This document shows, piece by piece, positions 42,794-61,872 of a stretch of DNA of 64,000 nt (positions are counted from its first letter, which is position 1; the number at the start of each line of letters is the position of its first letter). The stretch is from an uncultured Ectothiorhodospiraceae bacterium. GTDB lineage: Bacteria > Pseudomonadota > Gammaproteobacteria > CAMYNG01. The notes below the pieces were generated by a model, which saw nothing but the letters and a program-made list of their open reading frames with translations, was not told the origin of the DNA and searched no databases. The DNA lies in assembly GCA_947259765.1 (NCBI GenBank), contig CAMYNG010000019.1, positions 10,892-74,891 of the forward strand, read 5' to 3'. A program made the position numbers and the translations under genes.

Positions 42794-42859
42794 CCAACGT
42801 ATCGTGGTAGACCGCAAACCGCTTCGTAGTATAGCGGCCACACATGCTGAACGTTAGTC
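42788..42859 (+). repeat. attC recombination site 1 (72 bp)
   Basis: Begins AGCTAAC (RYYYAAC, 1 mismatch) and ends GTTAGTC (GTTRRRY, 1 mismatch). An ungapped alignment to attC2 gives 50/72 identities by hand count, including CGCAAACCGCTT and CCACAC. Confidence 0.7.
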
Positions 42860-42892
42860 CAAATTATATATCCAAACAAAATTGGGAAAACA

Positions 42893-43672
42893 ATGACGAA
42901 AAGACATCGAATACAATTTCCGAAAGATGAATTAACCAGCATCAATCAAGATGAAGCCTATTTCTATCTTCAAGGTTCAGGTGGCAAGAGAAAAATAAGG
43001 TTCCACGACTACGATGAAATTTATCAAGTACCAGGTCTGTATGAACAGATATTCTATGATCGTCTTAAATGCACATCTCCAAGTAAAGTAGCATCAATTC
43101 TCGAATCAGCGGTAAAACAGTATCAAAATAACTTTACTGAGCTTCGTATATTAGATTTAGGTGCGGGCAATGGCATGATGGGAGAAGAGCTAAAAAAGCA
43201 TGGGGTTTCTCGCTTAATAGGCGTAGACATAATACCCGAAGCATATGATGCAGCAATTCGAGATAGGCCGGGAATCTATGATGCATACTATGTTGAGGAT
43301 TTTACCCGCCTAGATAAGGATAAAAGGGAAGAAATAGCGTCATGGCAATGTGATTGCATGGTAACGGTTGCTGCACTAGGTTTCGGTGACATTCCGGCGA
43401 AGGCATTTTTAGAGGCATTTAATATAATTAAGAGCAAAGCGTGGGTTGCCTTTAATATAAAGGATACATTCTTTGATATAGGCGATGAATCAGGATTTTC
43501 AAAAATGATCAGGGAATTAATTTTCTCTAAATATCTTGATATTTACTACATCGAACGCTATCGACATCGGTTGTCAATTGAAGGCGAGCCACTGTACTAT
43601 TTCGCGATAACGGGATGGAAAACATCAGATGTGCCTGATGATTTCTTGGAGTCAAAAGACATCAAGGCCTAA
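42893..43672 (+). CDS. cassette ORF: class I SAM-dependent methyltransferase
   Basis: Motif I ILDLGAGNGMMGEEL, then acidic GVDI, then CMVTVAALGFGD. 259 aa. The TAA stop lies inside the attC R'' core. Confidence 0.75.
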   Translation: MTKRHRIQFPKDELTSINQDEAYFYLQGSGGKRKIRFHDYDEIYQVPGLYEQIFYDRLKCTSPSKVASILESAVKQYQNNFTELRILDLGAGNGMMGEELKKHGVSRLIGVDIIPEAYDAAIRDRPGIYDAYYVEDFTRLDKDKREEIASWQCDCMVTVAALGFGDIPAKAFLEAFNIIKSKAWVAFNIKDTFFDIGDESGFSKMIRELIFSKYLDIYYIERYRHRLSIEGEPLYYFAITGWKTSDVPDDFLESKDIKA

Positions 43673-43738
43673 CAAGCGCATAGTGATGGAACGCAAACCG
43701 CTTTGCGGTTCTGCGCCCACACCTGCGTCACGTTAGAT
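43667..43738 (+). repeat. attC recombination site 2 (72 bp)
   Basis: GCCTAAC...GTTAGAT are perfect RYYYAAC/GTTRRRY cores and match the termini I recall for the aadA-type attC. The internal arms GCAAACCGC / GCGGTTCTGC pair with a bulged base. Confidence 0.75.
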
Positions 43739-43749
43739 TTTAGGAAATC

Positions 43750-44106
43750 ATGAAATTAGCACTCGTTTGGTTTTTCTTATCTGCGTCGATTTCTATTGTG
43801 CTGGCAATAAATGCTCCAAGCTTTCTACCGGTGGGAGAAAGTACAGCCGAGGCGATAAAAATATCGAGTGAACTCCAGCTTCTTGATCAGCTTATGTCAC
43901 TAAGGACGGTTAACAGTGAGATTTTACGAAGTAAACATAAAGAATTGCATAAAACTTATAAGCAAGCGGCTGTTAATAGTCAGATAGAAAACCTCCCGGC
44001 CGTAATACTATTTTCGACATTAATAGGGCTTGGTATTGTAAATATTCTTGTAATTTTTTGGTTGTTGCTGAACAAGTCCAGCCGACAAAAAATACGAAGC
44101 GACTGA
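43750..44106 (+). CDS. cassette ORF: hypothetical protein with N- and C-terminal hydrophobic helices
   Basis: 118 aa. It starts 12 nt after attC2. N-terminal signal/TM, a central helical region, and C-terminal TM VILFSTLIGLGIVNILVIFWLLL. Confidence 0.45.
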   Translation: MKLALVWFFLSASISIVLAINAPSFLPVGESTAEAIKISSELQLLDQLMSLRTVNSEILRSKHKELHKTYKQAAVNSQIENLPAVILFSTLIGLGIVNILVIFWLLLNKSSRQKIRSD

Positions 44107-44135
44107 TTCGTAACGCTACGTGTTTGAAAAGATAA

Positions 44136-44489
44136 ATGAGACCATTTCCTGAAAATTTTCAACTGGAAAGCTTCTTTGAAGGTGAGCCTGAGGTTCTCGA
44201 TAAAGATGTGCCATGGGCGTATAACGAGTTAGTTTTTAATGTCACAGCAAAAAATGGAAACCTTAAAGTAAAAATGGTAACTGGATGTGAGCTCATGGAC
44301 GTAATTTGGAAACAAGGCGAGCACACTGTATTAAAGCTAGAACTTAAGGGCATCAGATCGCTGCAAGTGATGGACGAGAAGAAATACGACACATTAGTGT
44401 CTAGTTTTAGGAGTGAAGATGTAGATGATCTTAAAATTAAAATTCGCCCGGTTATAAGCATTACATGGGGTTATGATGATCAACCTTAA
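44136..44489 (+). CDS. cassette ORF: hypothetical soluble protein
   Basis: 117 aa. Only 29 nt separate it from the preceding ORF, and there is no attC between them, so this appears to be a two-gene cassette. Confidence 0.4.
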   Translation: MRPFPENFQLESFFEGEPEVLDKDVPWAYNELVFNVTAKNGNLKVKMVTGCELMDVIWKQGEHTVLKLELKGIRSLQVMDEKKYDTLVSSFRSEDVDDLKIKIRPVISITWGYDDQP

Positions 44490-44568
44490 ATCAACACATG
44501 ACAAGTCGACCAAGTTTGCGCGCAAGGCGCGCCGGACCGCCAACACGCTTCGCGGCCGCTCGTTTCAA
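44488..44568 (+). repeat. degenerate attC-like site 3
   Basis: ATGACAAGTCGACC...GCCAACACGCTTCGCGGCCGCTCGTTTCAAAT parallels the CCTAACAAGCGCAT...CGTTAGAT layout of attC2, but both cores are mutated. It contains the GCGCGC-aag-GCGCGC hairpin. Confidence 0.35.
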
Positions 44569-44625
44569 ATGCTATGCTGAAAAAAGTACGAGCTGGCATA
44601 TGAAAGAACAAAAATTGGAGGCAGT

Positions 44626-44883
44626 ATGAAGTTTTCAGCAGAAACACTTATTGACGTCTATGGTGCTGGCCAAGAATTACCGACAACCGAACAATGGGAA
44701 ACGCTTGTTAATGGCGATATGAGTTTACCACTAACAGTTGTTAATTTTTTTATACTTAAGGAAAAGGCCGACACATCTTTAACTGACAGTAAAGAAATGA
44801 CGGGAATGGAAGCCTTTCGAAAAGTTGCTCCTAAGAGGTTGGTTACTAAATTGAAAACAATTAGCTGGCATGTCGCCTTATAA
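44626..44883 (+). CDS. cassette ORF: hypothetical protein (weakly DUF1330-like, possibly truncated)
   Basis: 85 aa. The segment PLTVVNFFILKEKAD....TGMEAFRK resembles the long-form DUF1330 N-terminal half. This assignment is from memory and is weak. Confidence 0.35.
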   Translation: MKFSAETLIDVYGAGQELPTTEQWETLVNGDMSLPLTVVNFFILKEKADTSLTDSKEMTGMEAFRKVAPKRLVTKLKTISWHVAL

Positions 44884-44924
44884 ACGCTTTCGCACTGACG
44901 GTTATACGGGTATCGACGTTTATT
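44879..44924 (+). repeat. short attC-like inverted repeat 4 (doubtful)
   Basis: TATAAACG...CGTTTATT: 7-bp terminal inverted repeats contain AAC/GTT, and the stop codon overlaps the left core. At only 46 bp it is shorter than typical attC sites. Confidence 0.25.
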
Positions 44925-45094
44925 TTCGTGACCCATAAAGCCCGCTGGCAGCGGGGCTCTAATAACCTTAGCAACCGTCTACTACGATAATACTTTCGAA
45001 AGGGCACCGATTTATCGGTACACTCACAGACCACGTTAAATTGGGCAGCGCGTCGGTCAAATGAACGACCACGTGAGACATTAGGTCGCGTTTT

Positions 45095-45493
45095 CTATTG
45101 TTTCCCAGGTTCGTCGATGGCCACGCGGATATAACCGGGCTGTGGATGTTTCGGGCCTGGGAGTTTGACGTCAAAACGAACGGCAAGCGCTTCTCGGGCT
45201 TCTATCCAGTTCTTACCATCAAAACTCACCCAGTTCTTGTAGGCATAAATATCCCGCTTGAGAGTTACCGTGAGTTGATCGCTGGCCTGCTGTTGCAACA
45301 GCGTACCGACGATTTGGACGTCTGTGCTGATTGGTTGTCCGGCTGGAAAGAGCAAGATGAAGTCCTGGTTTGCAGGAATCTTTTCTCCGAAAGTTACCAT
45401 GGGAACCTGGGCCAGTTCGCTGGATGTCGGTACACCGGCACAGGCAGAAATCGCTAGACTGGCCATGATGGCGAGCACAATGGTTCTCTTCAT
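45095..45493 (-). CDS. hypothetical lipoprotein
   Basis: Lipobox LAISAC|AG. 132 aa. Confidence 0.55.
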   Translation of the reverse strand: MKRTIVLAIMASLAISACAGVPTSSELAQVPMVTFGEKIPANQDFILLFPAGQPISTDVQIVGTLLQQQASDQLTVTLKRDIYAYKNWVSFDGKNWIEAREALAVRFDVKLPGPKHPQPGYIRVAIDEPGKQ

Positions 45494-45568
45494 TGTTTTA
45501 AACTCCCTTTATAAACAAGCCCCACAAATCGGAACAAGGCCTGGTTGTTGATTGCGCTGAAAACTGTA

Positions 45569-45611
45569 TACTCTGAAAAACAGAGTTAATGTTACTCTGC
45601 ATTACAGAGTA
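45569..45611. promoter_or_regulatory. twin operator-like palindromes TACTCTG-N5-CAGAGTA
   Basis: TACTCTGaaaaaCAGAGTT (45569-45587) and TACTCTGcattaCAGAGTA (45593-45611). Their centres are 24 bp apart, and the second ends 17 nt before the ATG at 45629. Confidence 0.55.
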
Positions 45612-45628
45612 GATCAAGGGGAAACAGA

Positions 45629-46669
45629 ATGCACGGCACGGCAGAACAAATTGACGCCATTCATGCCATGATGGAATCGGGGGCGCGTAGTGTGCGCCTT
45701 GAAACCCATACCCCGGTGTTATGGGGGCTTGCGGGCGCCATATTAATCCTCGTCATCGACGACGTGTTTACCGCAGAGCAGTTTTCCGTAGCCTGGCAAC
45801 GTACGTTGGCGGCAAACGCTTTCATTGGCATGGTCCTGCTGGCGGTCGGTATCGTTGATTTCCGGCTAACCCGACGTGCGCGTCTGGCACGGGACGAGTC
45901 GCTGTCTTTCGTACAGACTCAACTCACCAAGGTATGGTGGCTGGTGGTGACACTGGTTGTGCTGCTTAACATCGGCATGAATTTTTTCGGTGGCGGCTAC
46001 CTATACTATCCGGTGGTCATGGCCCTGATTGGTTTGGCGTTCTATATACATGGCTTGTTTTCCCAGCAAATGCTGTCCTGGGCGGGATTGCTGCTGATCT
46101 TTGTGGGCGCTATGAGTATCGTTTTAGGTATTCCGTTTTCGACACAAGAGTGGCTCGCAGTGGTGGTGTTTGGCATCGGGCTTCCGGCGTTGGGTTTTAT
46201 GATCCGTACGACTTGGCTACAGACCACTACCTTGCGCCGGGGTATGACCGCAACGCTTTGGTTGTCACTGATCCTGGTGTGTGCGGCAATGTTGAGCGGA
46301 ATGGAGCAGCGCCGTGCGATTCCCGATGCGTCTGCCGTTCCTCTGCAACAGTTCCAACAGACCAAAAATGGTGACGATACGCTTCAGCTTGTACGCCTTC
46401 CGGCTGGAACACGGGTCCCCTTGCAGCTTTCGTTCGCCGGCGACATACTTAAGGGTGACGTTACCGCAGAGCTTTACTTAACCTTGTCCCAGGACCTGGA
46501 TGTGATGGTACAGAACGGTCAACCTGATGGTCGCTATCGCGTTGCCGGCGGTGAATGGAAGGCGAAGCGTTACACGTTTCGGGTTAAAAATGTTGATTTG
46601 TCTTCGACACTAACGGAAGAGAAAGGCCCGGAAGCTTCAGTGCGCCTTTTCTTAAGTACAGACGGCTGA
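45629..46669 (+). CDS. hypothetical polytopic membrane protein with a C-terminal soluble domain
   Basis: 346 aa. About 7 hydrophobic helices are followed by a beta-rich-looking tail of about 110 aa. It is the first gene behind the twin palindromes. Confidence 0.5.
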   Translation: MHGTAEQIDAIHAMMESGARSVRLETHTPVLWGLAGAILILVIDDVFTAEQFSVAWQRTLAANAFIGMVLLAVGIVDFRLTRRARLARDESLSFVQTQLTKVWWLVVTLVVLLNIGMNFFGGGYLYYPVVMALIGLAFYIHGLFSQQMLSWAGLLLIFVGAMSIVLGIPFSTQEWLAVVVFGIGLPALGFMIRTTWLQTTTLRRGMTATLWLSLILVCAAMLSGMEQRRAIPDASAVPLQQFQQTKNGDDTLQLVRLPAGTRVPLQLSFAGDILKGDVTAELYLTLSQDLDVMVQNGQPDGRYRVAGGEWKAKRYTFRVKNVDLSSTLTEEKGPEASVRLFLSTDG

Positions 46670-49246: not shown

Positions 49247-51325
49247 ATGAAATCGTCGGTTCGTTGCCCGTTTCTACCGTGTGGAGCCTTGCTCCCTGTG
49301 GTTACAATTTTTCTTCTTTTGCTTGTAACTCCGTTACCGCTTTTGGGTGCTGACTCCGCCGCGAAATCAGACGAAAAGAAAGTCGAAGCGAAAACCGGTA
49401 ACAGTGAACAGGACAATTCGTCCGCCGACGCAGCAACACCGGCTGTCGAAGAGGCAGCAGAGGGATCTGTTTCGGCCCGACTCCGGTTGATCGAGGATGC
49501 AATTAAGACTGATCAGACAACTCAAAAGCAGCTTCTGGAGCGAATTGAAAAGCGAAAAAAACGGTTTAAGAGCATGAGTACGCGTCTGGACCGGGTGAAC
49601 AAGGAAATCGAGACCAGCAGCAAGCAACTTGAGGCACTGGATGAAAAAACGGAGTCTGCAAAAGCCGAGGCGCTCAAGCAACAACTGGGCAGACTGGAGG
49701 GTGATAAAGCCCTGTTGCAAAGTCAGTCCGATATTGAAATCAAAGCCGAGCAGACAGAACGCACCCAACTTCAAATCCTGGAAAAAAAGATTGGAGACAA
49801 CAAGGCCCTTTTAGACGAATTGAAGGGAGTCAGGCGACCTGAGCCGGAGACCGCACCTGTGACCGCTCCGACCGCCCCGGTTCCGGCGGTTGTGGAGGGC
49901 GCGACGCCAGTTCCAACAATACCAGCGATACCGGGCCAGATTCCGCAGCCCTCGGAGGATGCGACACAGCCTGGCAAACCGGCATCGGAGCTGCCTGAAA
50001 CTGCAGAGCAGATTGAGGCGCGTAAGGAGGCGGAAAAAAGGGAGCAGGAGGCCAAGCAGGCTGAGCGAGCAATAGAGGAATCGGTTGAACGAAAAAACCT
50101 GCTTGAGGAACAAATCAAGCAAGCGAAAATGCTGTTGCAAACTGCGGAAGTGACTGAGCAAAACTACGAAAAGTGGGTGATAGCACGCGAGCAGGAACTG
50201 AAGGAAAAAATTGCCGCGGGCGAGCGGAAATCGGTGCTGGTGAAACTACAAAAAGAAATTGAATTAGTTCGAAATGCCATTCGCGAAAATCGTAAGGAGA
50301 TGAAAGCACGTATCAGTCATATCAGTGATTTACATACACAACTTGCGGCGTTACAGGCGCAACAGCTTCGCGCCGTAAAGGAGTCGGAGGAAAAACGAAA
50401 ACAGGCGGAGGACGCACGCCGGCAAAGTATCTGGCTGGAAAGTCCGTTCCATCCGCACAACCTTCTGCGTTGGATACAAACCCGGGGTCCGCGAATTCTG
50501 ATGGTGTTTGTAGTCATTGGATTTATGTTGTTGGTGTCGAGGCTGACCTTCTACCGGCTCGCAAACTTGCTAGTGCGTCGTGGGCGCGGCCAAGAAGAGT
50601 CACGGGTCAATCGGGCGCAAACGTTGGCGATCAGTTTTCGTAGCGTGACCGAGATCATAATTATTGTTGGCGGCGTGTTGCTGGTGCTGGAAGCGGCCGG
50701 AGTGGATGTCAAAGCAGTATTGGGTGGCGCGGCCATCATTGGTTTGGCAATTGCTTTTGGTGCGCAAAACCTGATGCGTGACTACTTTACCGGTTTTATG
50801 ATTTTGATTGAGGACCAGTATGAACTGGGTGATCTTGTTACAGTGGGTGACGCAACTGGTATTGTTGAAAAGGTGAATATGCGAACAACGGTGCTGAGGG
50901 ACCTGGAAGGCCGCGTGCATTTTATACCCAACGGGCAGATTCGGCAGGTGACCAACCGAACCTTTGAGTGGGCGCGCGCCGTGATTGAGGTCGCTGTGGC
51001 CTACAAGGAGAACGTGGATCAGGTTATGAAACTGCTGATGGAATTGGCAAACGAGTTACGCCAAGATCCGGAGTATCGCAACGCCGTGCTTGAGGAGCCT
51101 GTCATGCTGGGGGTTGATGCCTTTGGAGATGCCGCGGTTAAAATTAAGTTTATGATGAAAACCCGGCCGGATCAGATGTGGGCGGTAAAACGTGAACTGT
51201 TACGTCGAATCAAGAACAGGTTTGATGAAGAGGGTATAGAAATTCCGATTCCGCAACGAATTATTTTTCAGCATATCGATCAGGTTCGTGAACCCGGACC
51301 AAATTCCGGTCCGCTGCTGACCTGA
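49247..51325 (+). CDS. mechanosensitive ion channel family protein (MscS superfamily, long N-terminal coiled-coil domain)
   Basis: Signal peptide, about 400 aa of coiled coil with a Pro/Ala-rich linker, TM helices, and the MscS core GAQNLMRDYFTGFMILIEDQYELGDLV. Confidence 0.8.
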   Translation: MKSSVRCPFLPCGALLPVVTIFLLLLVTPLPLLGADSAAKSDEKKVEAKTGNSEQDNSSADAATPAVEEAAEGSVSARLRLIEDAIKTDQTTQKQLLERIEKRKKRFKSMSTRLDRVNKEIETSSKQLEALDEKTESAKAEALKQQLGRLEGDKALLQSQSDIEIKAEQTERTQLQILEKKIGDNKALLDELKGVRRPEPETAPVTAPTAPVPAVVEGATPVPTIPAIPGQIPQPSEDATQPGKPASELPETAEQIEARKEAEKREQEAKQAERAIEESVERKNLLEEQIKQAKMLLQTAEVTEQNYEKWVIAREQELKEKIAAGERKSVLVKLQKEIELVRNAIRENRKEMKARISHISDLHTQLAALQAQQLRAVKESEEKRKQAEDARRQSIWLESPFHPHNLLRWIQTRGPRILMVFVVIGFMLLVSRLTFYRLANLLVRRGRGQEESRVNRAQTLAISFRSVTEIIIIVGGVLLVLEAAGVDVKAVLGGAAIIGLAIAFGAQNLMRDYFTGFMILIEDQYELGDLVTVGDATGIVEKVNMRTTVLRDLEGRVHFIPNGQIRQVTNRTFEWARAVIEVAVAYKENVDQVMKLLMELANELRQDPEYRNAVLEEPVMLGVDAFGDAAVKIKFMMKTRPDQMWAVKRELLRRIKNRFDEEGIEIPIPQRIIFQHIDQVREPGPNSGPLLT

Positions 51326-51333
51326 CGCGTAAT

Positions 51334-51720
51334 TTAACGGCGTATCGGTTTGCCGTAAACCCAGGTCAGTAACACGAGCAAACCAAAAAGGGTGTAAACC
51401 AGCCCGAACACCCAGGGCTCGGCCTGAAAAAAGATCACTTTGTGTAACCAATGTTGAATAAAACCGCCTGCATAGGTGGCCTCTCCGGCACGCGCACGCA
51501 GCGTGTTTTCCCAGCTTGTTAGCGGACATATTTCGCCAACCCATGCCTGTACCACGACGAACCAGATTGCGGCGAGATGTAAAATGCGAAACCAGTAGTT
51601 GCGTACCCAGGGCCACTTAAAAACCAGGCCAAAGATGATTAGCAGTTGCCCGCCAACTACGAAGATGATGAACAGGAAATGAAAGACCAGGATTAGATCT
51701 GCGAGAATGATATCGATCAT
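51334..51720 (-). CDS. DUF2784-like small membrane protein
   Basis: 128 aa with 4 helices. The segment ...GEICPLTSWEN is as I recall for DUF2784. Confidence 0.55.
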   Translation of the reverse strand: MIDIILADLILVFHFLFIIFVVGGQLLIIFGLVFKWPWVRNYWFRILHLAAIWFVVVQAWVGEICPLTSWENTLRARAGEATYAGGFIQHWLHKVIFFQAEPWVFGLVYTLFGLLVLLTWVYGKPIRR

Positions 51721-51787
51721 TTCGTCACGTTACCGGCCGGGCTTGCATGTGTAGATAATTCAGGCAGCGCTGTTTAAAACCTCTATC

Positions 51788-51856
51788 GTCATTCCGGCGC
51801 TTGCCGGAATTCAGTGAAGTCAGATGGTTCTGGATTCTGGTCTTCGCCAGAATGAC
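51788..51856. repeat. REP-like elements in inverted orientation
   Basis: GTCATTCCGGCGCTTGCCGGAATTCAG (51788-51814) and GGATTCTGGTCTTCGCCAGAATGAC (51832-51856, the family in the opposite orientation). Confidence 0.8.
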
Positions 51857-51988
51857 ATTTTTCAAAGCTTCCTTTGTGCTTAAAAACCGCTTTGCAATCA
51901 CGCGGGTATATGCTGTTGCTCCAAAAATATGTCATTTTTGGAGCTAATGGACGTTAGCGTGTGCGGCGGGCTTTCCACCAATTCCTTT

Positions 51989-52585
51989 TTAGATCGTGCG
52001 GCCAAAGCGCTTGGCTATCCAATAGTCAATGCTGACATAACGGCCTGCGCCGATGAAAAACAACACCAACAGCATGATGAAGTAGGTCGCTGCAAATTCA
52101 ATACCGCTGTTGAGCACCACGAAACTGCCGTTTTCGGTTAACCATTCATAATTTCCATGCTGCTGCAGTATATCCTTGGCCTTGTCGAGCCGTTCAACGG
52201 CACCAGCGGTGCGCTCGGTGGCAAAAATACCGCCGCCTTCTGCAATGGCCAGCCAACCATTCTGCCAGTGTACCGTAAGCGCGGCGACCAGCATGGTGAA
52301 CATAAGGGGAACAGCTATCCAGCGTACCCCAAATCCGAACAGCAGCATCACGCTGCCGGCCAGTTCGGAACCAACCGCTAGAAACGCCATCAGTCCCGGT
52401 AGGGGCAGGCCCAGGCCCCATTCGGCATTGCCGAACCAGTCAACGGTATCGGAGAAACTATTGAACTTGTTACTGCCCGCCATCCAGAAAATTGGAAAAA
52501 GATACAATCGTAAAGCGAGTGGGCCGAGAAAATCGACCACGCGCGTGCGGTCCAGAAGATCCTGTAAACGTAGCAGCATACCCAT
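51989..52585 (-). CDS. DoxX family membrane protein, fourth gene of the MNIO operon
   Basis: 198 aa. RLYLFPIFWMAGSNKF... with 4 helices, DoxX-like. It lies 46 nt downstream of the DUF2063 gene on the same strand. Confidence 0.7.
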   Translation of the reverse strand: MGMLLRLQDLLDRTRVVDFLGPLALRLYLFPIFWMAGSNKFNSFSDTVDWFGNAEWGLGLPLPGLMAFLAVGSELAGSVMLLFGFGVRWIAVPLMFTMLVAALTVHWQNGWLAIAEGGGIFATERTAGAVERLDKAKDILQQHGNYEWLTENGSFVVLNSGIEFAATYFIMLLVLFFIGAGRYVSIDYWIAKRFGRTI

Positions 52586-52631
52586 GCTTTCCTCCGGGTG
52601 TTTATTGGTTTTTTACTTTATCGAGTCTGGA

Positions 52632-53414
52632 TTAGATACGAACGCCGGGGACGACGTCGCGAACTTGTAGATCCTTGAGGATCTCCAGACCACCGCTGAC
52701 GACAACGTCGGGTTCCGGGTGACCGAGCTCGACGGCGATCTGGTTTAGCATTTCTCGGCCGGTCGTTGTGTTGTTCTCGCTCATTAACTGAATCAGGCGT
52801 GCGGTAACCGGATTCGTTTCAAGAAAATGCACGGCGCCGTCTCGATCGCGGTAGACCACAAGAAAGGTAGGCGACTCACCAGGGGTTTCCGGCAGGAAGT
52901 CCGGGCCAATTTTATGTACCGGGAACTGATAACTTAGCGGCCACGCTAACGGTGACAACATGGGAACACCATCGAGTAAATCGCCCGAGCCATCTATGAG
53001 CTTGTCGTCAATCTCCTGTTCGGCAATCGAAAGTGCCAGCTCGATCCATTCATAGTGTGCAAGCTCCAGCATGAATGGCGGATCATCGGGGCTGGCTTCT
53101 CTTTCGTTCTCAAGATACTTGAGAAACTCCCGTGGCATTTCCGGAAACAACGGTGTGTGCGAGAGGTGATTTGCGAAATAGTCGCGGATCATGGCGTGCC
53201 AGCGATCCTCTGGTGTGATTTTGCGCAGAACCGGGTAGGTGCTGGCCATGAAATCCTCGACGTTGTTATAGAACAACTCCCGATAGATTTTCATGCGCCG
53301 ATCTTCGACGCCTTCCGGTCGAGGATTGCGATCCGGGTTACGGATGTGTGCCGTAAACTCGTATTGCTGTCGGGTAAATTCGGGCTTGTCAGGCGTGCGT
53401 TGAGACGACGTCAT
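52632..53414 (-). CDS. DUF2063-family RiPP maturase partner protein
   Basis: From MTSSQRTP (ATG at 53414, overlapping the upstream gene by 26 nt): [12 protein letters not shown]....[16 protein letters not shown]...YPVL is the DUF2063 N-terminal pattern. Confidence 0.7.
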
Positions 53415-54246
53415 TCGACTTGGTCCACTTTTGTTGCAGAGCGGCAATCGTATCCACTTCCTTGAGCAAATCAGCCAGCGGCGGGAGGTTAAAGTCGCGC
53501 TCAAGAAGTGTCGGGATCACGCCAAACTGAGCATAGGTTCTGTCAAGAAGTTCCCACACGGGATCAATGACGTCCGCACCGTGCGTGTCGACGATGAGAT
53601 CGTCGGCTTCATTGTAATGCCCGGCAACATGTATGTAGGCGATGCGCTCGGCCGGGATTGCCTGTAAATAGGTTTCTGCGTCATAGCGATGATTAACGCT
53701 ATTGACGTAAATGTTGTTAACGTCGAGGAGTAAATCGCAATCCGCTTCTTCCAGTACTGCGTTGAGAAAATCGATTTCCTCCATTTGCTTGCCGGGTGCG
53801 GCATAGTAGGAAACGTTTTCCATCGCGATGCGCTGTTCGAGAATGTCCTGAACACGCCGAATACGCTCGGCTACATAATGCACCGCTTCTTCGGTGAACG
53901 GGATGGGCAGCAGATCGTACAGGTGGCCGTCGTCACTGCAGTAGCTTAAATGCTCACTGTACAGACGAATACTGTGTTCGTTGAGAAATCGCTTGAGACG
54001 CTGCAGAAAGGCTTCGTCTAAAGGTGTTGGGCCGCCAATTGACAGGGAGAGCCCGTGGCATATGAAATCGTGACGTTCGGTCAATTGCCGGAACTGTTTA
54101 CCGAAGTGACCGCCCATTCCGATCCAGTTTTCCGGTGCCACCTCCCAGAAGTCGACTTGATCGGCGGGCTGGTCGGTCAGCGGACCCAGAAGGGTCCGCC
54201 TTAGACCAAGACCGGCACCATGAACAGAAAAATCCTTATCAGTCAT
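53389..54246 (-). CDS. DUF692 / MNIO (multinuclear non-heme iron oxidative) family RiPP maturase
   Basis: GLGLRR..., [58 protein letters not shown], and PTLLERD form the full DUF692 motif series. 285 aa. Confidence 0.85.
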
Positions 54247-54261
54247 GGTTATGCGTCCGAC

Positions 54262-54612
54262 TTACTTGCTGCCGCCGCACTTGCCTTCGCCGCACTTGCC
54301 TTCCTTGCCTTTCATATCTTCGCCTTTCTTGGCGCCGCCGCACTTACCTTCGCCGCATTTGCCTTCCTTGCCTTTTTTGTCGCCGCCACATTTGCCTTCC
54401 TTGGATTTGCCGTCAGCGCTTTTGCCTTCGCCGCACTTGCCTTCGCCACATTTACCTTCCTTGCCGGCCACCATATAGCCGCTGGACAGTTCATTCATGG
54501 CAAACGGGTTGGCACCTTGCTCTGCAGCGCTGGCAACATTGCTGGCAGCCAGGCCGACCGCAAATGCAGTACCAAGCGTAAGAGAGAGAGGATTCAGGGT
54601 TTTCTTAGACAT
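54262..54612 (-). CDS. RiPP precursor: Sec signal peptide followed by seven EGKCG repeats
   Basis: GGAGG lies 8 nt upstream of the ATG at 54612. MSKKTLNPLSLTLGTAFAVGLAASNVASA|AEQG... then KEGKCGEGKCGEGKSADGKSKEGKCGGDKKGKEGKCGEGKCGGAKKGEDMKGKEGKCGEGKCGGSK. It ends 15 nt upstream of the MNIO gene. Confidence 0.8.
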   Translation of the reverse strand: MSKKTLNPLSLTLGTAFAVGLAASNVASAAEQGANPFAMNELSSGYMVAGKEGKCGEGKCGEGKSADGKSKEGKCGGDKKGKEGKCGEGKCGGAKKGEDMKGKEGKCGEGKCGGSK

Positions 54613-54990
54613 CGAGGTTGCCTCCATAGCAATTACAATTTGAGCCACAGCCTGGCTCGTGGGTTATAGTTTTTTCATCTCGTCGTAACGATATGTTTTC
54701 ATTCCGACACTTGCTCGATTATGACAGGGTCGAACTGCGTAAGTTTCACGAATAAATCACAAAATGCAACCAACTGCATGCAATTTATCGGTATTGGTAT
54801 GAGTTTCCAAATCAGGATTGCAACCCAACCTTAAGCAGACCGGCATTGATCGAAAATCCTTACAATCACACACAACCGTTATGTAATTGCGGCTACTTCC
54901 GGTCCAGTTCGCATCCGAATCAGTCCAATTGCGAACTTTGTCAATCGTAACCTGTGCTTGATTGTGGGTCTCCTTCCTCGGTGCCGGGAG

Positions 54991-55416
54991 CTAGATTTGT
55001 TTGCGAATACACTCAAGATAGTGCTGCTCGTCCGGAGGGCGCTCGTCGTGCTGGGCCTGCCACATCATTTCCACAAGGCAATTCATTATTCGGTGTTCGA
55101 CTTCGTGCGGATCCTGCAGTTTGTTCGCCAGCACCTGGAACAGCTCCACAATACCTTCCGGCTGTTGGCTACCGAGTTGTTCCTGCACAGCTACATGCAG
55201 GGCCATATGTAAAAAGGGGTTGGTTTCACCCGCGTCTGCCGGGTAGTCCTTGTCAAGATTGCCCGCTTCATCCTCCAGCAGGGCATGGTATTCGCTATGC
55301 TGGGCGACGATGGCTGCGACCATTTGCTCTAAAGGCTCCAGCGGCTCTTTTTTGCAATACTTCTGCCATGCGGAAAAGAACATTTGACGGAGTTGGTGAC
55401 GATCCTGGGAAAACAT
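54991..55416 (-). CDS. DUF1841 family protein
   Basis: From MFSQDRHQLRQMFFSAWQK... (ATG at 55416), 141 aa. NPFLHMALHVAVQEQL is as I recall for DUF1841. The ORF-track N-terminal extension overlaps nth. Confidence 0.6.
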   Translation of the reverse strand: MFSQDRHQLRQMFFSAWQKYCKKEPLEPLEQMVAAIVAQHSEYHALLEDEAGNLDKDYPADAGETNPFLHMALHVAVQEQLGSQQPEGIVELFQVLANKLQDPHEVEHRIMNCLVEMMWQAQHDERPPDEQHYLECIRKQI

Positions 55417-55528
55417 GTCGACTCGAAAATAAAAGACAGGCGGCTGACGATACCGGACTCGGCGAACAATTGGTACCGTATTAGTATCGCCTTGGCTAAC
55501 CGGCGATCTCGGCTTTCGACGACTACCC

Positions 55529-56164
55529 TCAATCCAGGAGTTTTTCTCCAAACTCACACAGATCTTCAATCGTGCAGGAACCACAGCGCGGCTTGCGGGC
55601 GATACAGGTATAGCGGCCATGCAGAATCAACCAATGATGAGCATCCTTTTTATATCTAGGCGGTACGACCTTGAGTAGCTTATTCTCTACCGCAAGTGGG
55701 GTTTTTCCAGGCGCCAGCCCCGTGCGATTGGATACCCGGAAAATATGTGTATCAACAGCAATGGTGGGATGGCCAAAGGCGGTGTTCATGACGACGTTTG
55801 CGGTTTTGCGGCCCACACCGGGGAGTTTTTCCAGCGCTTCCCGTGCTTCCGGCACCTTACCGCCGTATTCGTCCACCAAAATACCGCAGGTCTTGATGAC
55901 ATTTTTCGCTTTGGTGTTAAACAGGCCGATGGTTTTGATGTAACTTTTCAGGCCAGGCTCACCCAGTGCAAGTATCTTTTTTGCAGTCGGGGCATCACGA
56001 AACAATGGTCCGGTGGCCTTGTTGACGCCTTTATCGGTGGCTTGTGCGGAAAGAATCACCGCCACCAGAAGTTGAAACGGGGTCTTGTAATTCAGTTCGG
56101 TGGTAGGTTCCGGGTTGGCTTTTTTCAGGCGTTTGAAAATTTCTTTTACTTTTTCTTCTTTCAT
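55529..56164 (-). CDS. nth: endonuclease III
   Basis: HhH-GPD: LPGVGRKTANVV, catalytic VDTH, and the 4Fe-4S cluster CIARKPRCGSCTIEDLC. 211 aa, downstream of rnfE as in other gammaproteobacteria. Confidence 0.92.
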   Translation of the reverse strand: MKEEKVKEIFKRLKKANPEPTTELNYKTPFQLLVAVILSAQATDKGVNKATGPLFRDAPTAKKILALGEPGLKSYIKTIGLFNTKAKNVIKTCGILVDEYGGKVPEAREALEKLPGVGRKTANVVMNTAFGHPTIAVDTHIFRVSNRTGLAPGKTPLAVENKLLKVVPPRYKKDAHHWLILHGRYTCIARKPRCGSCTIEDLCEFGEKLLD

Positions 56165-56272
56165 TTACTTAGCTAGCCACAGAGAACACAGAGAATAAAG
56201 CTCGAATAAACCATCTCCTTAAAACATCAGTCTGGAGATTTTTTGGATCCAAAGGTAATTTGAATTCACTGG

Positions 56273-56337
56273 ACTCCGGTTTTCACCGGAGTGACGCACT
56301 GGTATGCAGCGTGTCATTCTGGCGAAAGCCAGAATCC
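56273..56337. repeat. REP-like palindromic elements
   Basis: ACTCCGG-ttttca-CCGGAGT (56273-56292) and GTCATTCTGGCGAAAGCCAGAATCC (56313-56337). Confidence 0.75.
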
Positions 56338-56447
56338 TTTGGATTCCTGAACAAAGTCGGCCTCGGCCTTAGGGAGTGTCACGATACCAACTAATCAATT
56401 GGCTTCAAAAAAACTCTATGCCCTCTGTAAACTCTGTGGTTCGGATT

Positions 56448-57140
56448 TTACGTTGCCGGTGCGTCAACTACCGGCACTGCCACAACGGTCTTGCGTTTTT
56501 CTTCCAGTCGCTTGTCGATCACATTTTTAACGGCAATCAGCAGACCCAGACCGATAAAGGCGCCGGGTGGCAGTATGGCCAGTAAAAAGCCGCGGTAATC
56601 TTCAACGAGGGTGATGGTTAACCAATGTGCCTGTTCACCAAACATCAGGTTGGCTTGCGCAAACAGCGTACCGAAACCGATTGCTTCGCGCATCGCGCCC
56701 AACACCAACAGCACTGCGGTAAAACCGAGCCCCATAAAAAGGCCATCGGCAAATGCGAGCCCCACATGGTTTCTTGAGGCATATGCCTCCGCGCGCGCGA
56801 TAATCGTGCAATTGGTTACGATAAGCGGAATGAAAATGCCGAGGATCAAATAAAGTTCGTGAAACCAGGCATTCATGGTCATTTCAATGATCGTGACCAC
56901 AGATGCAATGATCATGACGAAAACGGGGATACGGATCTCCGGGCGGACCCATTGGCGGATCAACGACACGATGCTGTTTGAAGCGATCAAGGTAATCGTG
57001 GTGGCAAGGCCCAGTCCCAGCGCATTGACTACCGTGTTAGTTACAGCAAGCAAAGGGCACAGGCCCAGTAGCTGAACAAGCGCGGGGTTATTTCCCCACA
57101 TGCCGTCATGTACTATCTGCCCCGTTTCGCTGCGTGGCAT
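56448..57140 (-). CDS. rnfE: electron transport complex subunit RnfE/RsxE
   Basis: [16 protein letters not shown] and the rest is family-typical. 230 aa, in gene order rnfABCDGE. Confidence 0.9.
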
Positions 57141-57805
57141 TAGCGATTCTCCGTTTGGGTGGTATCTGCCGCCGTCGTTGTCGCGGGTTTGGCAAACAAC
57201 TCGTCGCGGTGACGCTGGAAGTAGAGTAGCGTGTTGTGAACGGCTTTGACAACCGCGCGTGGCGTAATGGTTGCGCCGGTGAATTGGTCAAACTCACCAC
57301 CGTCACGTTTCACTTTCCAGCCTTTTGAGTTTGGGTTCTGGAGTGATCGGCCGGTAAAACCTTTTATCCAGTCGGACTTTCGTTCGTCCACCGCATCACC
57401 CAGCCCCGGCGTTTCCAGATGGCGGGTGACGCGCACGCCCGCAAGCGAGCCGTCGTAACGTATCGCAACCAGCAGGTAAATTCTGCCGTTATATCCGTCC
57501 GGCGCGATGCTGGCGACGATGGCGGCGACAGGTTTATCGTTGCGCCGTGCACGATATACCGGCAACGGATTCTCGCTGCCCAGGTGCCTTTCGTCAGTAA
57601 CGTGAATGACGTCGGAAAATAAATCATTGTCATGTTCGTCAGGAGGCACCAGTACGTGTAGATTTCGCAGTACCGTGGCACGCTGGTTCGCAGCGATCCG
57701 GGGCGCGGTGCGCTCATGAGTTAGCGCCAGCAACGTGGTGCCCACCATTGCAAATAGTCCGAGTAAGACCGCGCTAATGGCCATGTTTCTGCCAATGCCG
57801 GCCAC
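57140..57805 (-). CDS. rnfG: electron transport complex subunit RnfG/RsxG
   Basis: N-terminal TM helix, FMN-binding domain ETPGLGD, and GATITPRAV. Its stop and start abut the neighbouring genes. Confidence 0.88.
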
Positions 57806-58848
57806 TAGTTGCGTTCCTCGCCGAACACGCGCGGTTGGGTGTAATAATCAATGGTGGGTACGGCCATGTTCATTAACAGCACCGCAAAGGCAACCCCATC
57901 CGGATAACCGCCCCAGTTTCGAATGATATAAGTCAGTGCCCCGATACCGGCACCGTAGATCAGTCTGCCGCGCGGGGTTGTTGCGGCGGTAACCGGGTCC
58001 GATGCAATAAAAAATGCTCCCAGCATGGCTGCACCACTGAACAAATGAAACCACGGCGACGAAAACTGTTCGCTGTCAATTAGCCAGAAAACCGTCGCCA
58101 TCAGGGCCAGTGTGCTCAACATCGCGAACGGGATTTGCCACGCTACGACGCGCTTGTAAATAAGCCACATACCACCGAGAAGAAACATCAGGTTTACGCG
58201 ATCCCAACCCGTGCCGCTAACGGTACTGAACAGGCCCGGACTGGATAGGTGAATGTCGGAGATGGTCTCGCCGAGTCCAACACGCGTTTTTACGGTATCC
58301 ATCGGGGTTGCCATGGAAATGCTGTCGTAGGTACTGTCCGCGGGCAGGATACTGAACAGACTGTAATTCAGTAAATCCAGAAACTCCGGTGTTGTTGCGC
58401 CCAATGAAGTAGGTGGAAGCCATGCAGTCATTTCGCGTGGAAATGCGATAAGCAGCATGGCGTAACCCACCATTGCAGGATTAAACGGGTTATAGCCCAG
58501 ACCGCCATATAAATGCTTGGCGACCACAATGGCGAACAGTGTACCCAGCACGGGTAGCCACCAAGGCGCAAAAGGCGGCAGCGCCAGGGCCAGCAGCAGC
58601 GCGGTGACCAGTGCGCTACCGTCGGTTATAAACGGCAGCACCGCTCGCCGCCGGAGGCGAAGCATCAATGCTTCACTGGCCAGTGCGGTCAGTGTCGCGA
58701 GGGCCATGTTAATCAACAGCCCGGTGCCAAAAAATGCTACATAGAATGCCGATCCGGGTACCAGGGCCACTACGACCCAAAGCATGGTACGCGTGAGGCT
58801 CGGGCTGGCAGTGATATGCGGTGAGCTTAAGGTATTCTTAAATTTCAT
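57805..58848 (-). CDS. rnfD: electron transport complex subunit RnfD/RsxD
   Basis: Polytopic, NqrB/RnfD-like, with SDPVTAATT near the C-terminus. 347 aa. Confidence 0.9.
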   Translation of the reverse strand: MKFKNTLSSPHITASPSLTRTMLWVVVALVPGSAFYVAFFGTGLLINMALATLTALASEALMLRLRRRAVLPFITDGSALVTALLLALALPPFAPWWLPVLGTLFAIVVAKHLYGGLGYNPFNPAMVGYAMLLIAFPREMTAWLPPTSLGATTPEFLDLLNYSLFSILPADSTYDSISMATPMDTVKTRVGLGETISDIHLSSPGLFSTVSGTGWDRVNLMFLLGGMWLIYKRVVAWQIPFAMLSTLALMATVFWLIDSEQFSSPWFHLFSGAAMLGAFFIASDPVTAATTPRGRLIYGAGIGALTYIIRNWGGYPDGVAFAVLLMNMAVPTIDYYTQPRVFGEERN

Positions 58849-60541
58849 CGGTTTTCTTTTCCGTTACCGATTCGGCCTGTGGATCCGTTGACGGTGTTGC
58901 GGGTGGATCAGTCTTGAGATGTTTGCGGCGCTCATCCACTTCTGCAATCGCTTTTCGCTGTGCATCAGTGAGGTGTTCAACATTCCGCGCACCGGAATCT
59001 TGTTGTTCCTTACGTGCCTTGACGCGATCCAGTGCGGCCTGGATTGCCGCCTTCTTGGGATCAGGGGTCTCGCTTTTTTCGCCGCGTGCCTTACGGAGCT
59101 TTTCTTTTTTAAGCCGTTGGCGCTCTTCCTTGTCTTGTTTCTCTTTCTCAAGCCGTTCAAGCCGGAACTCATGTCTTTGGCGGGCCAAGTCCGACTTACG
59201 CTTTTCTTTCTCCTGCGACCAAATCTCGGTTTTCGCAAAACGGAAGTATTGCACCAGTGGAATATTCGACGGGCAGACATAGGCGCAACAACCACATTCA
59301 ATGCAGTCAAACAGTTTGTGATCCTGAACCTTGTCCAAATCCTTGGACCACGAATACCAGTAAAGTTGTTGCGGCAGCAACAATGCGGGACAAACGCGAG
59401 CGCACTCGCCGCAGCGAATACACGGCATGGCAACGGGGCTCGGTCGCTGCGGTGCAGGCAGCGCAAGAATGCAGTTGGTTGTTTTTACCACCGGGATCGC
59501 ATCGCTGGTAACTGCAAATCCCATCATAGGCCCACCCATAACGAGTTGATCGTTGCTTTTGGGATGCCACCCGCATTGCTGTAGTACTGAAGAAAACGGC
59601 GTACCGATGCGTACCTCCAGATTGCGGGGTTGTTCCAGGTTTTCACCGGTAATTGTGACGACGCGCGATACCAGGGGTTCACCCAGAGTAACCGCATGAT
59701 GAACCGCCGCAGCGGTCGCCACATTGTGACAAACAATGCCGATGTCGAGCGGCAGGCGTTGACTTGGAACCTCTTTGCCTGTCAAAACCTTAATGAGTTG
59801 TTTTTCGCCGCCTGCCGGATAGCGGGTGGGGACTGTAACAACATCGATAAATTTAGTTTCATCTGCGCTCAGTGCGCCGCGCAGTGCGACAATGGCATCT
59901 GGCTTGTTGTCCTCGACACCTATAAGACAATATTTCGCCTGTAGCGCGTGGCGCATTATCTTCAGACCGTCAATGACTTCGCGCGGCCGTTCCTGCATCA
60001 GCATGGCGTCACACGAAATATAGGGCTCGCATTCGGCGCCATTGAGTATCAGCAAATCGATGCTGCCGCCGGCTCCTGGATTAAGTTTGATAAAGGAAGG
60101 GAATCCCGCGCCGCCCAAACCGACAATACCGGCGTCTCGAATGATGTTGCGTAGCTCACTCGCATCAAGTGTTTGATAATCTCCACTTGGAGTTTTATCC
60201 GGATCCCAACGATCTTCTCCGTCTGTTTCGATAACGATACATGTTGCATTTTGTCCGGACGGATGTGGGATCGGCCGTTCTTCAATAGCGATGACTTGTC
60301 CGGAAGACGAAGCGTGTACTGACGCGCTGACATAGTCCTGTGCTCGCGCAATCAGCTGGCCTTTTAATACTCGATCTCCGGGCTTAACGACCGCTACAGC
60401 GGGCTCGCCTATATGCTGTTGCAGGGGTAACACCAGTTGTGGTGGCAGGTCCGCAATCATGACCGCATCCTGCATCGACATGTCCTTGTGCCCGTCGAGT
60501 ACCAATCCGCCGGGAAAACGCCAGAGCTTGTGCGTTGTCAC
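58838..60541 (-). CDS. rnfC: electron transport complex subunit RnfC/RsxC with a Lys/Glu-rich C-terminal extension
   Basis: GLGGAGFP, two ferredoxin motifs ([12 protein letters not shown] and [12 protein letters not shown]), and a charged tail of about 130 aa. Confidence 0.9.
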
Positions 60542-61089
60542 GGCTTTTTCTCCTGCGGTGTTTCCGGGAACGGCCAGGTCCAGTCACTGAGTTCCTTTTT
60601 GACCGGCACCATATCGATGCAATCTACCGGGCAGGGCGGTACGCAGAGTTCACAACCTGTGCATTCATCTTCTATTACCGTATGCATCTGTTTTGCTGCG
60701 CCAAGTATGCAGTCAACCGGGCAGGCCTGGATGCAGAGCGTGCAGCCGATACAAACCTGCTCATCGATTACGGCGACTAACTTATCTTTGTGCTCGCCGT
60801 GATCTTCGTTTAGCGGTTTGGCATCTCGTCCCAACAGATCGGCGAGCGATTGTATAACGGCTTCACCGCCCGGCGGGCATTGATTGATGTCCGCCTCACC
60901 CTTTGCGATAGCCTCGGCATAGGGCCGGCAACCGGGGTAGGTGCATTGACCACATTGTGTTTGCGGCAAAATCTTGTCAATCTGATCGACAACCGGATCC
61001 TCTTCAACCCGAAACCGGACCGCGGCAAACCCCAGCACCAGGCCAAACACAATTGCCAGTGCCGATAGCGCAATGATCGCAGACAGCAT
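60538..61089 (-). CDS. rnfB: electron transport complex subunit RnfB/RsxB
   Basis: N-terminal TM helix, [15 protein letters not shown], and 2x[4Fe-4S] motifs [12 protein letters not shown] and [12 protein letters not shown]. Confidence 0.9.
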
Positions 61090-61095
61090 GTGTGC

Positions 61096-61677
61096 CTAGC
61101 CTTTAACCAGGCCGGAGAATCCCATGAAGGCCATGGACATCAAGCCGGCGGTAATTAAGGCAATCGATGCGCCCTTGAAGGGTACGGGAACGTCGGCGAC
61201 CGCAATGCGTTCGCGCATAGCAGAGAACAGAATCAGCACGAATGAAAAGCCGACCGCTGCGCCAAATCCGTACACGGCCGATTCAAGAAAGCCGTGCTGT
61301 GTTTGTACATTTAACAGGGCTACACCCAGTACTGCACAGTTGGTGGTGATAAGCGGCAAGAAAATCCCCAGCACCTGATAGAGTAATGGACTGCTTTTAC
61401 GTACTACCATCTCAGTAAACTGCACAACAACCGCAATGACGAGAATGAAGGTGATTGTGCGCAAGTACTCCAGTCCGAGCGGCGCCAAAAGATACTCGTT
61501 AACCAAATAACTGCAAACAGATGAGAGTGTCAGGACAAAGGTGGTGGCGAGCGCCATGCCGGTTGCGGTTTCGAGTTTGCGTGACACGCCCATGAACGGA
61601 CACAGGCCGAGGAACTTCACGAGTACGAAGTTATTGACCAGAATTGTACTGACCAGAATGAGCGCGAGTTCTTTCAT
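61096..61677 (-). CDS. rnfA: electron transport complex subunit RnfA/RsxA
   Basis: From [32 protein letters not shown] (ATG at 61677), 193 aa, the canonical RnfA length. The ORF-track extension to 61761 crosses a 12-bp tandem duplication. Confidence 0.9.
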
Positions 61678-61872
61678 GCCAGGTCCGGGGTGCGGGCGGT
61701 GTGTGCCTGGAGCTGAACCGGTATCTGTACCGGTATCTGTATCAGCCGAAGTACCAGACAACGCCGCGGAAAACAGAACGTACTTATTCTAACGTAAGCC
61801 GTGTCTTTCTGCTAAATAAGATAACCGTGACGGGCTTAAGTGCATTCGGAGTTACGTGTTTCTGCAAGCGTA

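Follow-up and report, generated by a model that had tools for sequence, protein, structure and literature searches.

A chromosomal hvf/fon-type operon, probably encoding a copper-binding captophorin, in an uncultured Ectothiorhodospiraceae bacterium

The operon and its four products

The stretch of DNA analysed here, 64,000 nt of contig CAMYNG010000019.1 from an uncultured Ectothiorhodospiraceae bacterium, contains a compact operon of four minus-strand genes at 51989-54612, in the order hvfA-hvfB-hvfC-hvfX. They encode a precursor peptide with seven cysteines, an enzyme of the MNIO (DUF692) family, its DUF2063-type partner protein and a DoxX membrane protein. In what follows 'the window' means the whole 64-kb stretch, and coordinates are positions of that stretch. 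The features of the operon and its surroundings are listed below, with the evidence for each in brackets.

54720-54747, minus strand: candidate promoter of extracytoplasmic function (ECF) sigma type, GAAACTT-N15-GTCATA (motif match and conservation in relatives)
54621-54625, minus strand: Shine-Dalgarno sequence GGAGG, 8 nt 5' of the hvfA ATG (read from sequence)
54262-54612, minus strand: hvfA/fonA-type precursor, 116 residues (NF050137, EGKCG motif count, homologues)
54526-54612, minus strand: predicted Sec signal peptide, precursor residues 1-29 (A-x-A rule and homology)
54466-54510, minus strand: leader-like conserved segment NPFAMNELSSGYMVA, precursor residues 35-49
Precursor residues 50-116: core rich in Gly, Lys and Glu, with seven EGKCG units in a 2+1+2+2 arrangement
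53389-54246, minus strand: hvfB/fonB-type MNIO (DUF692), 285 residues (PF05114, NF003818, PDB code 3BWW, iron-ligand positions)
52632-53414, minus strand: hvfC/fonC-type partner protein (PME1), 260 residues (PF09836 and PF22106, NF050145)
51989-52585, minus strand: hvfX-type DoxX membrane protein, 198 residues (PF07681, NF050144)
51918-51944, minus strand: A/U-rich 12-bp hairpin, beginning 44 nt past the hvfX stop codon (fold of 51880-52000, z = -2.9)

The genes are closely packed, with a 15-nt gap between hvfA and hvfB, a 26-nt overlap between hvfB and hvfC, whose ATG at 53414 lies inside the 3' end of hvfB, and a 46-nt gap between hvfC and hvfX. Independent gene calling agrees on these boundaries, since an NCBI-derived protein collection contains exact copies of all four products (116, 285, 260 and 198 residues) from a single 111,654-bp contig, each a singleton at 90% identity. 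A longer precursor starting from a GTG at 54648 was considered but rejected: the GGAGG site, the N-termini of homologues and the independent gene call all favour the ATG at 54612. With a G+C content of 0.534, close to the 0.522 of the window, the operon looks native. The statements of this section on gene content, on family membership and on catalytic and specificity residues are direct observations.

The precursor opens with MSKK, in which the two lysines form the n-region, and continues through a hydrophobic core (Kyte-Doolittle 1.6-1.8) to the sequence NVASA/AEQG, the stroke marking the expected cleavage point. This pattern, kept in the precursors of 65 related loci, fits a Sec signal peptide, as predicted by the A-x-A rule and homology. 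(Counts of related loci here and below refer to the 80 best loci from a scan of species-representative genomes.) Separating the signal peptide from the repeats is the segment NPF(A/G)M.(E/D)L.SGYM.(A/L), which is widely conserved among precursor homologues. The C-terminal 67 residues are made up of Gly, Lys, Glu, the seven Cys and nine others (Ser, Asp, Ala, Met). All seven cysteines fall in EGKCG units, at residues 52, 57, 72, 83, 88, 104 and 109; a lone EGKCGG unit, that of C75, stands amid three EGKCG doublets. When back-translated to GARGGNAARTGYGG, the motif has seven matches in the window, all in the precursor open reading frame (ORF), against 0.06 expected. Pfam finds no domain in the precursor, while the model for the HvfA-family repeat domain, NF050137, gives 43.9 bits against a cut-off of 19.5. 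Homologues number 6642 proteins at E<=1e-3, and among the best 120 of these seven or eight is the commonest number of cysteines; neither HvfA nor FonA is among the 120 listed.

Some precursors of relatives have a normal signal peptide and, flanked on either side by EGKCG repeats, a pair of calcium-binding EF-hand loops of the form DADGDG... (loci L028, L039, L054, L059, L060, L064 and L066; also P0055, P0104 and P0115). In published EF-hand fusions a short EGKCG domain, free of repeats, is followed C-terminally by the EF-hands, so that the precursors seen here look like a somewhat different arrangement.

The product of hvfB is matched over its full length by PF05114 (MbnB_TglH_ChrH; positions 1-262 of 263, E = 9e-109) and passes the model for HvfB-family MNIO maturases, NF003818, with 459.2 bits against a cut-off of 360. 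Scores on the models for BufB (NF050167, 277.6 bits, cut-off 310) and MbnB (TIGR04159, 47.2 bits, cut-off 325) fall below threshold. The best structural match is the Histophilus somni protein 3BWW (E=2e-81), with weaker matches to MbnB structures. Alignment with 3BWW and MbnB places residues equivalent to iron ligands at H64, H99, E143, D175, N178, H206, D220, H222 and E249, these positions having been marked by reference to the ligand numbering of MbnB; H99 aligns with MbnB H90, and the DxxN, HVAG, DTH and ERDF motifs with their MbnB counterparts. In 80 relatives all nine positions are invariant, as are R17 and D251, while position 16 is Arg in 76 and Lys in four, and position 252 is Phe in 79 and Ser in one.

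Four of these residues bear on substrate choice or catalysis. R16, R17, D251 and F252 are the counterparts of R15, R16, D249 and F250 in FonB, the MNIO of the fontiphorin system, where they act as gatekeepers for the Glu and Lys of EGKCG (Lys-Cys) substrates and as catalytic base (PMC13097082). The site-3 residues N175, D242 and H244 of HvfB, which are essential by mutation, correspond here to N178, D220 and H222. The protein is predicted to be an iron- and O2-dependent enzyme that oxidises each EGKCG cysteine. No second MNIO cluster was found in the window.

The partner protein combines an N-terminal DUF2063 domain (PF09836, E=1.8e-26) with a C-terminal RRE-like NGO1945_C domain (PF22106, E=6.4e-33) and exceeds the cut-off of the model for HvfC-family maturation proteins (NF050145, 321.7 bits against 142). 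Its gene lies directly 3' of the MNIO gene in all 80 related loci. HvfX matches PF07681 (DoxX, E=1.3e-21) and passes the HvfX family model NF050144 (236.3 bits, cut-off 80). It contains no cysteine and so is not a thiol-disulfide oxidoreductase by itself. Conservation among 53 relatives reaches at least 95% at residues including D18, R26, K40, E74, R88, W89, H106, E163 and D187. A DoxX gene occurs in 56 of the 80 related loci, 3' of the partner gene in the listed coordinates with the exception of locus L070; it is missing from every Nitrosomonas locus among the 80. In Caulobacter, DoxX is dispensable both for modification and for copper protection (PMC11626156). We propose that HvfX is an accessory inner-membrane protein.

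An earlier, sequence-only reading of this DNA had described four minus-strand genes, and their coordinates and spacing are exactly as it gave them. The strong ribosome-binding site, the putative Sec signal peptide ending NVASA/AEQG (here by the A-x-A rule and homology) and the seven cysteines, each in EGKCG, to which it drew attention are all present. What it had called a complete DUF692 motif series corresponds to the full-length PF05114 match and the NF003818 score, its DUF2063 pattern to PF09836 and PF22106 together with NF050145, and its DoxX-like fourth gene to PF07681 and NF050144. It had suggested comparison with profile models and inspection of the iron ligands: the HvfB, HvfC and HvfX models and the HvfA-family repeat model all score above cut-off, and the conserved ligands are all present in the alignments and unvarying among the 80 relatives. 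Family models, iron ligands and literature alike support its central proposal that the MNIO and its DUF2063 partner oxidise the cysteines of a Sec-exported EGKCG peptide, with an accessory DoxX protein.

Chromosomal setting and upstream region

At least 580 relatives of the MNIO are present in species-representative genomes. The best, 81% identical, is from a Chromatiales metagenome-assembled genome (MAG), followed by those of Thiohalobacter, Thiogranum, Thiohalophilus, MAGs of Ectothiorhodospiraceae type and many Nitrosomonas. The order A-B-C(-X) is kept in relatives, the precursor gene being 5' of the MNIO gene in 75 of the 80 related loci.

Upstream of the operon lie a DUF1841 gene, nth and rnf genes, and downstream a DUF2784 gene and the gene for an MscS-type channel. 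The upstream neighbours recur: rnfE is present in 42, nth in 44 and the DUF1841 gene in 30 of the 80 loci, 5' of the operon as in the window, and the order rnfABCDGE - nth - (DUF1841) - hvfABCX (window 54991-61761, minus strand) is common to many Chromatiales-like genomes. This conserved position after rnf-nth suggests that the operon has been inherited vertically at a fixed, apparently ancestral chromosomal site and is not a mobile island. Two flanking genes were considered as further members and rejected. The DUF2784 gene (51334-51720) is 268 nt away and is found in none of the 80 related loci; the DUF1841 gene is treated as a neighbour because the promoter motif described below stands between it and hvfA.

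The longest ORF for the DUF1841 protein (54991-55620, minus strand) overlaps the end of nth (55529-56164, minus strand) by 92 nt. Since its Pfam match begins only at residue 73, the true start is probably an internal Met codon near 55416.

In ten related loci the gene directly 3' of DoxX, on the same strand, encodes a heavy-metal P1B-type ATPase with HMA, E1-E2 ATPase and hydrolase domains (L009:3380-6061, L014:7184-9862, L015:8457-11135, L061:5876-8551 and six more). This arrangement provides independent support for a link to copper in the clade.

The region upstream of hvfA contains a candidate ECF-type promoter, with a -35 element GAAACTT (54747-54741), a 15-nt spacer and a -10 element GTCATA (54725-54720), some 108-135 nt 5' of the ATG. 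When the sequences 5' of the precursor gene in the window and in 61 related loci were compared by k-mers, GAAACTTT was seen approximately 107-160 nt before the start codon; with the sequences anchored to it, tGTC(a/g)TA emerged at a constant distance as a further conserved element. The anchored comparison, covering 42 related loci and the window, has the consensus GAAACTTTT...tGTC(a/g)TA. The pattern GAAACTT-N14-17-GTCNTA matches only at the candidate site in the whole window, where 0.01 matches are expected. The strict pattern gives exactly one match in 22 of the 80 related loci, always just 5' of the precursor (e.g. L001:5499-5526, L002:2927-2954), and is not seen in the Nitrosomonas loci, save for one-mismatch matches off position. 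A scan of 51000-55700 revealed no sigma-70-like promoter.

Hypochlorite induces the Haemophilus operon, whose expression strictly requires the ECF sigma factor RpoE2, and the Neisseria operon is transcribed by SigE from a promoter with -35 GTMAGBWTT and -10 CGTCTAAH; the conserved upstream element fits this known ECF-sigma control. The sequence-only reading had remarked that no protease, exporter or regulator gene is attached to the operon. As regards adjacent genes this is so, with the qualification that a conserved element of ECF type stands upstream and that the orthologous operons of Haemophilus and Neisseria are under ECF-sigma control.

A scan of the whole window against Rfam gave no RNA family, so there is no riboswitch or known leader; the putative 5' untranslated region folds with z = -2.0. 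Transcription may end at the A/U-rich hairpin 3' of hvfX, although this lacks the U-run that would make it a canonical intrinsic terminator. The one terminator-like match on the minus strand, inside hvfX, was dismissed, as six such matches were found against 5.5 expected by chance.

Relation to characterised systems and the probable product

More than 24,000 loci with an MNIO and a partner protein were found in a 2026 study, which named the class captophorins and revised the structure of oxazolin to 5-thiooxazole (PMC13097082). A 2025 survey, using a Buf_EGKCG/oxazolin profile, had counted about 2,000 such precursors, mostly from Pseudomonadota, with core clusters of precursor, MNIO, DUF2063 and DoxX genes. 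Protein identities to three characterised systems were obtained with sequences from the supplement of the fontiphorin paper (PMC13097082), a machine-read PDF, and are consequently approximate. For the A, B and C proteins, respectively, they are 47%, 66.5% and 50% to Fon; 38-45%, 50% and 28% to Ngo; and 47-62% (three local alignments), 46% and 21% to Hvf.

By these values the characterised system nearest to the locus is fontiphorin, from Fontimonas thermophila (ACS Chem Biol 2026). FonABC installs seven 5-thiooxazoles and the product binds up to four Cu (PMC13097082). The two loci share the precursor-MNIO-partner order, seven cysteines of EGKCG type, a signal-like N-terminal region, the segment ...(D/E)L..GYMVA before the repeats and the same Arg-Arg, Asp and Phe residues in the MNIO. 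They differ in that the fon cluster has no DoxX gene, in their host lineages and in the grouping of the sites, which is 2+3+2 in FonA and 2+1+2+2, with the lone EGKCGG, in the window. The sequence-only reading had held this repeat architecture to be uncharacterised, a view that fontiphorin overturns: it is itself a seven-site EGKCG peptide whose A, B and C proteins are 47, 66 and 50% identical, and seven or eight cysteines is commonest among the best 120 homologues.

With the HvfXABC system of nontypeable Haemophilus influenzae, the source of oxazolin, the window shares all four protein families, EGKCGEGKCG pairs in a precursor that is here, too, predicted to be exported by Sec, and the lack of a protease or exporter. 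There, HvfB and HvfC modify the six EGKCG cysteines of HvfA with loss of 4 Da each and the product binds copper; the signal peptide of HvfA is cleaved in E. coli (PMC11252979). However, DoxX comes first in Haemophilus and last in the window, HvfA (95 residues) has two N-terminal disulfide cysteines in addition to its six repeat cysteines, and between the AGH and DTH motifs both HvfB and 3BWW carry about 15 extra residues, an insertion that the MNIO of the window lacks.

The gonophorin operon of Neisseria, controlled by sigma E (NGO1948-1943, NMB2140-2145), likewise unites DoxX, an EGKCG precursor, an MNIO and a DUF2063 protein, and its ECF-sigma-dependent promoter has GTC in the -10 element like the candidate promoter of the window. 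Its DoxX gene is again first, its operon includes sigma and anti-sigma genes, of which Pfam scans across the 64 kb found none, and its promoter elements are distinct from the GAAACTTTT and TGTCRTA of the window's clade. Bulbicupramide (MmrABC, Microbulbifer), compared by description only, resembles the locus in its EGKCG cassettes with 5-8 Cys, its MNIO and DUF2063 proteins, the absence of a protease and a Cu(I)-binding product; no DoxX is reported in its cluster (PMC12538549).

The bufferins Buf1 and Buf2 of Caulobacter (BufABCD) show the same order of precursor, MNIO, DUF2063 and DoxX genes and have a Sec signal peptide on the precursor, as is predicted for the window, and their product is a periplasmic thiooxazole copper chelator that protects the bacterium from copper (PMC11626156). 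Their precursors are of DUF2282 or 6/12-Cys type, not EGKCG repeats. Methanobactin (MbnABC) shares with the locus the principle of an MNIO-family enzyme and a partner oxidising Cys into a copper ligand; it differs in its MbnC partner, where the window has a DUF2063 protein, and in its cleaved leader, exported small chalkophore, oxazolone/thioamide groups and uptake machinery. Pfam scans found neither MbnC nor methanobactin-type transport genes at the locus. As the Hvf models are passed and the BufB and MbnB models failed, the locus belongs with the EGKCG group and not with the bufferins proper or methanobactin.

The same comparison bears on the groups that the cysteines would carry. The sequence-only reading had spoken of heterocycle/thioamide groups, and one might suppose that, with operon and enzymes just as described, the product has oxazolone/thioamide pairs as in methanobactin. 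This was indeed the structure first reported for HvfA, in 2024 (PNAS), from the loss of 4 Da per Cys and a 302-nm chromophore (PMC11252979), and mass loss alone cannot separate it from 5-thiooxazole. The same laboratory and an independent one have since reassigned oxazolin as 5-thiooxazole by alkylation, labelled nuclear magnetic resonance and comparison with methanobactin. Thiooxazoles have been found alike in fontiphorin, gonophorin, bulbicupramide and the bufferins, and in FonA, HvfA, NgoA and MmrA they show the hallmarks of -4 Da per Cys, absorbance at about 302-305 nm and an alkylatable thiol. Given also the 459 bits scored by the MNIO on the HvfB model, as opposed to 47 on that for MbnB, we regard the methanobactin-like structure as very improbable. 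The mass loss of 4 Da per Cys implied in the sequence-only reading thus stands, and the oxazolone/thioamide assignment gives way in the EGKCG class to 5-thiooxazole.

Taken together, we read the locus as a chromosomal hvf/fon-type captophorin operon of the Lys-Cys/EGKCG group making a thiooxazole copper-binding peptide, with a probability, for identity and chemistry, of about 0.9; we are less confident of its physiology. Chemistry, export, copper binding and regulation are here carried over from characterised homologues, as follows. The four genes would be transcribed together, probably from the ECF-sigma-dependent promoter about 108-135 nt upstream. In the cytoplasm the DUF2063/RRE partner HvfC would bind HvfB and the precursor and enable the mixed-valent Fe(II)/Fe(III) cofactor; the originators of oxazolin report that this diiron cofactor forms only with the partner protein. 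HvfB and O2 would then carry out a four-electron oxidation of each EGKCG Cys to 5-thiooxazole, with loss of 4 Da per site at up to seven sites (-28 Da). Sec export of the modified peptide, and cleavage after ...ASA29 by signal peptidase, would release a lysine-rich periplasmic peptide of 87 residues, with a calculated mass of 8598.6 Da before modification, whose thiooxazole nitrogen and thiolate groups may chelate Cu(I) at about two rings per copper. The peptide would in this way sequester copper under metal or oxidative stress of the envelope, HvfX being an accessory inner-membrane protein that modification should not require.

As to physiology, two other main roles deserve consideration. In the first, oxidative, hypochlorite or thiol stress of the envelope would be what the peptide chiefly guards against, DoxX serving as a redox partner in the membrane. 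The ECF-type promoter motif conserved at the window locus and its relatives can be read in this light: the Haemophilus operon, strictly under the oxidative-stress sigma factor RpoE2, responds to HOCl, the Neisseria operon shares its sigma factor with msrAB, and EGKCG clusters gave weak copper phenotypes in heterologous tests (PMC12538549). A mycobacterial DoxX is also reported to act in thiol homeostasis. Yet Cu(I) binding is common to all the characterised products, Caulobacter gains protection against copper from bufferin (PMC11626156), ten related loci have the heavy-metal ATPase gene directly after DoxX and the HvfX of the window has no cysteine. We consider this role plausible in view of the ECF and HOCl findings, yet unlikely.

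In the second, the peptide would be a chalkophore-like device for copper acquisition or storage, supplying cuproenzymes rather than buffering excess metal. The closest relatives include many Nitrosomonas and sulfur-oxidising Gammaproteobacteria, and ammonia oxidisers depend on copper enzymes; methanobactin, besides, is a precedent for an MNIO product in copper uptake. Against this, Pfam scans of the window ORFs show no TonB-dependent receptor, exporter or periplasmic binding protein near the operon, the peptide is large, predicted to be Sec-exported and not proteolysed, and the class is induced by excess copper, gold or oxidants and not by copper starvation (PMC13097082). A supply role is therefore very unlikely.

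Several observations weigh against the captophorin interpretation or parts of it. The precursor scores 50.1 bits on the H. influenzae HvfA equivalog model NF050188, below its cut-off of 95, and lacks the two N-terminal disulfide cysteines of HvfA; it is not HvfA itself, yet it is a member of the HvfA/EGKCG family. Modification at all seven sites cannot be taken as certain, and that of C75 is the least so, because FonBC did not modify a test peptide with one repeat in vitro (PMC13097082). The copper link finds no echo in the window, where Pfam searches of about 50 ORFs and tblastn with a relative's CopA-like ATPase found no copper genes. Assignment of the GAAACTT-N15-GTCATA element to an ECF sigma factor is by motif match only, and we count against it that Pfam scans of the same 50 or so ORFs found no ECF sigma, anti-sigma or msrAB genes. 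The response of the Haemophilus operon to hypochlorite means that there may be signals besides copper, or one that ranks before it. Nothing convincing as a minus-strand terminator appeared in the scan of 51000-55700. Finally, the groups studying EGKCG peptides themselves call their physiological role unresolved (PMC13097082, PMC12538549).

As a captophorin operon the locus is a routine representative, itself uncharacterised, of a family already known and curated; neither its gene set nor its repeat architecture is unusual. Annotation of the genes as hvfA, hvfB, hvfC and hvfX (captophorin, EGKCG class) is warranted with high confidence and has little import beyond correctness; a family already on record from thousands of genomes gains one more lineage, related to Chromatiales, Thiohalobacter and Thiogranum. 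What is added here is modest: a candidate ECF-type promoter kept among relatives, a constant place after rnf-nth and, in some loci, a copper-type ATPase gene after DoxX. In these bacteria a search for the cognate sigma factor and its regulon could start from the promoter motif, and the ATPase gene in some relatives bears on the role of DoxX. These threads might be drawn together, for this clade of sulfur-oxidiser-like Gammaproteobacteria, in a vertically inherited core locus fixed downstream of rnf-nth, with a dedicated ECF-sigma promoter, in which HvfX is the membrane partner of the peptide and the whole a periplasmic copper relay and not a passive buffer. This is a speculative combination that we think quite unlikely to hold; if it did, HvfX might put copper on the peptide or take it off, or hold the thiooxazole thiolates in reduced form, passing copper in some relatives to the P1B-type ATPase.

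Other features of the window

Three further features of the window lie away from the operon. A class-III aminotransferase gene resembling argD (15879-17050, minus strand), adjoining that for ornithine carbamoyltransferase, is present as two overlapping ORFs, 16652-17050 and 15879-16736. As these match the N- and C-terminal parts of one Pfam model, the gene may be frameshifted or a pseudogene, or the split may be due to a sequencing error.

At 34998-38072 on the plus strand, following genes for E1 alpha and beta, a single ORF of 1024 residues encodes two lipoyl domains, an E3-binding domain, an E2 acyltransferase catalytic domain and a complete dihydrolipoamide dehydrogenase (E3). Such fusion of E2 and E3 in one polypeptide is uncommon.

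Lastly, the stretch 42001-46000 is low in G+C (0.41-0.46, against a window mean of 0.52) and its ORFs have no or weak Pfam matches; it may be a small foreign island.

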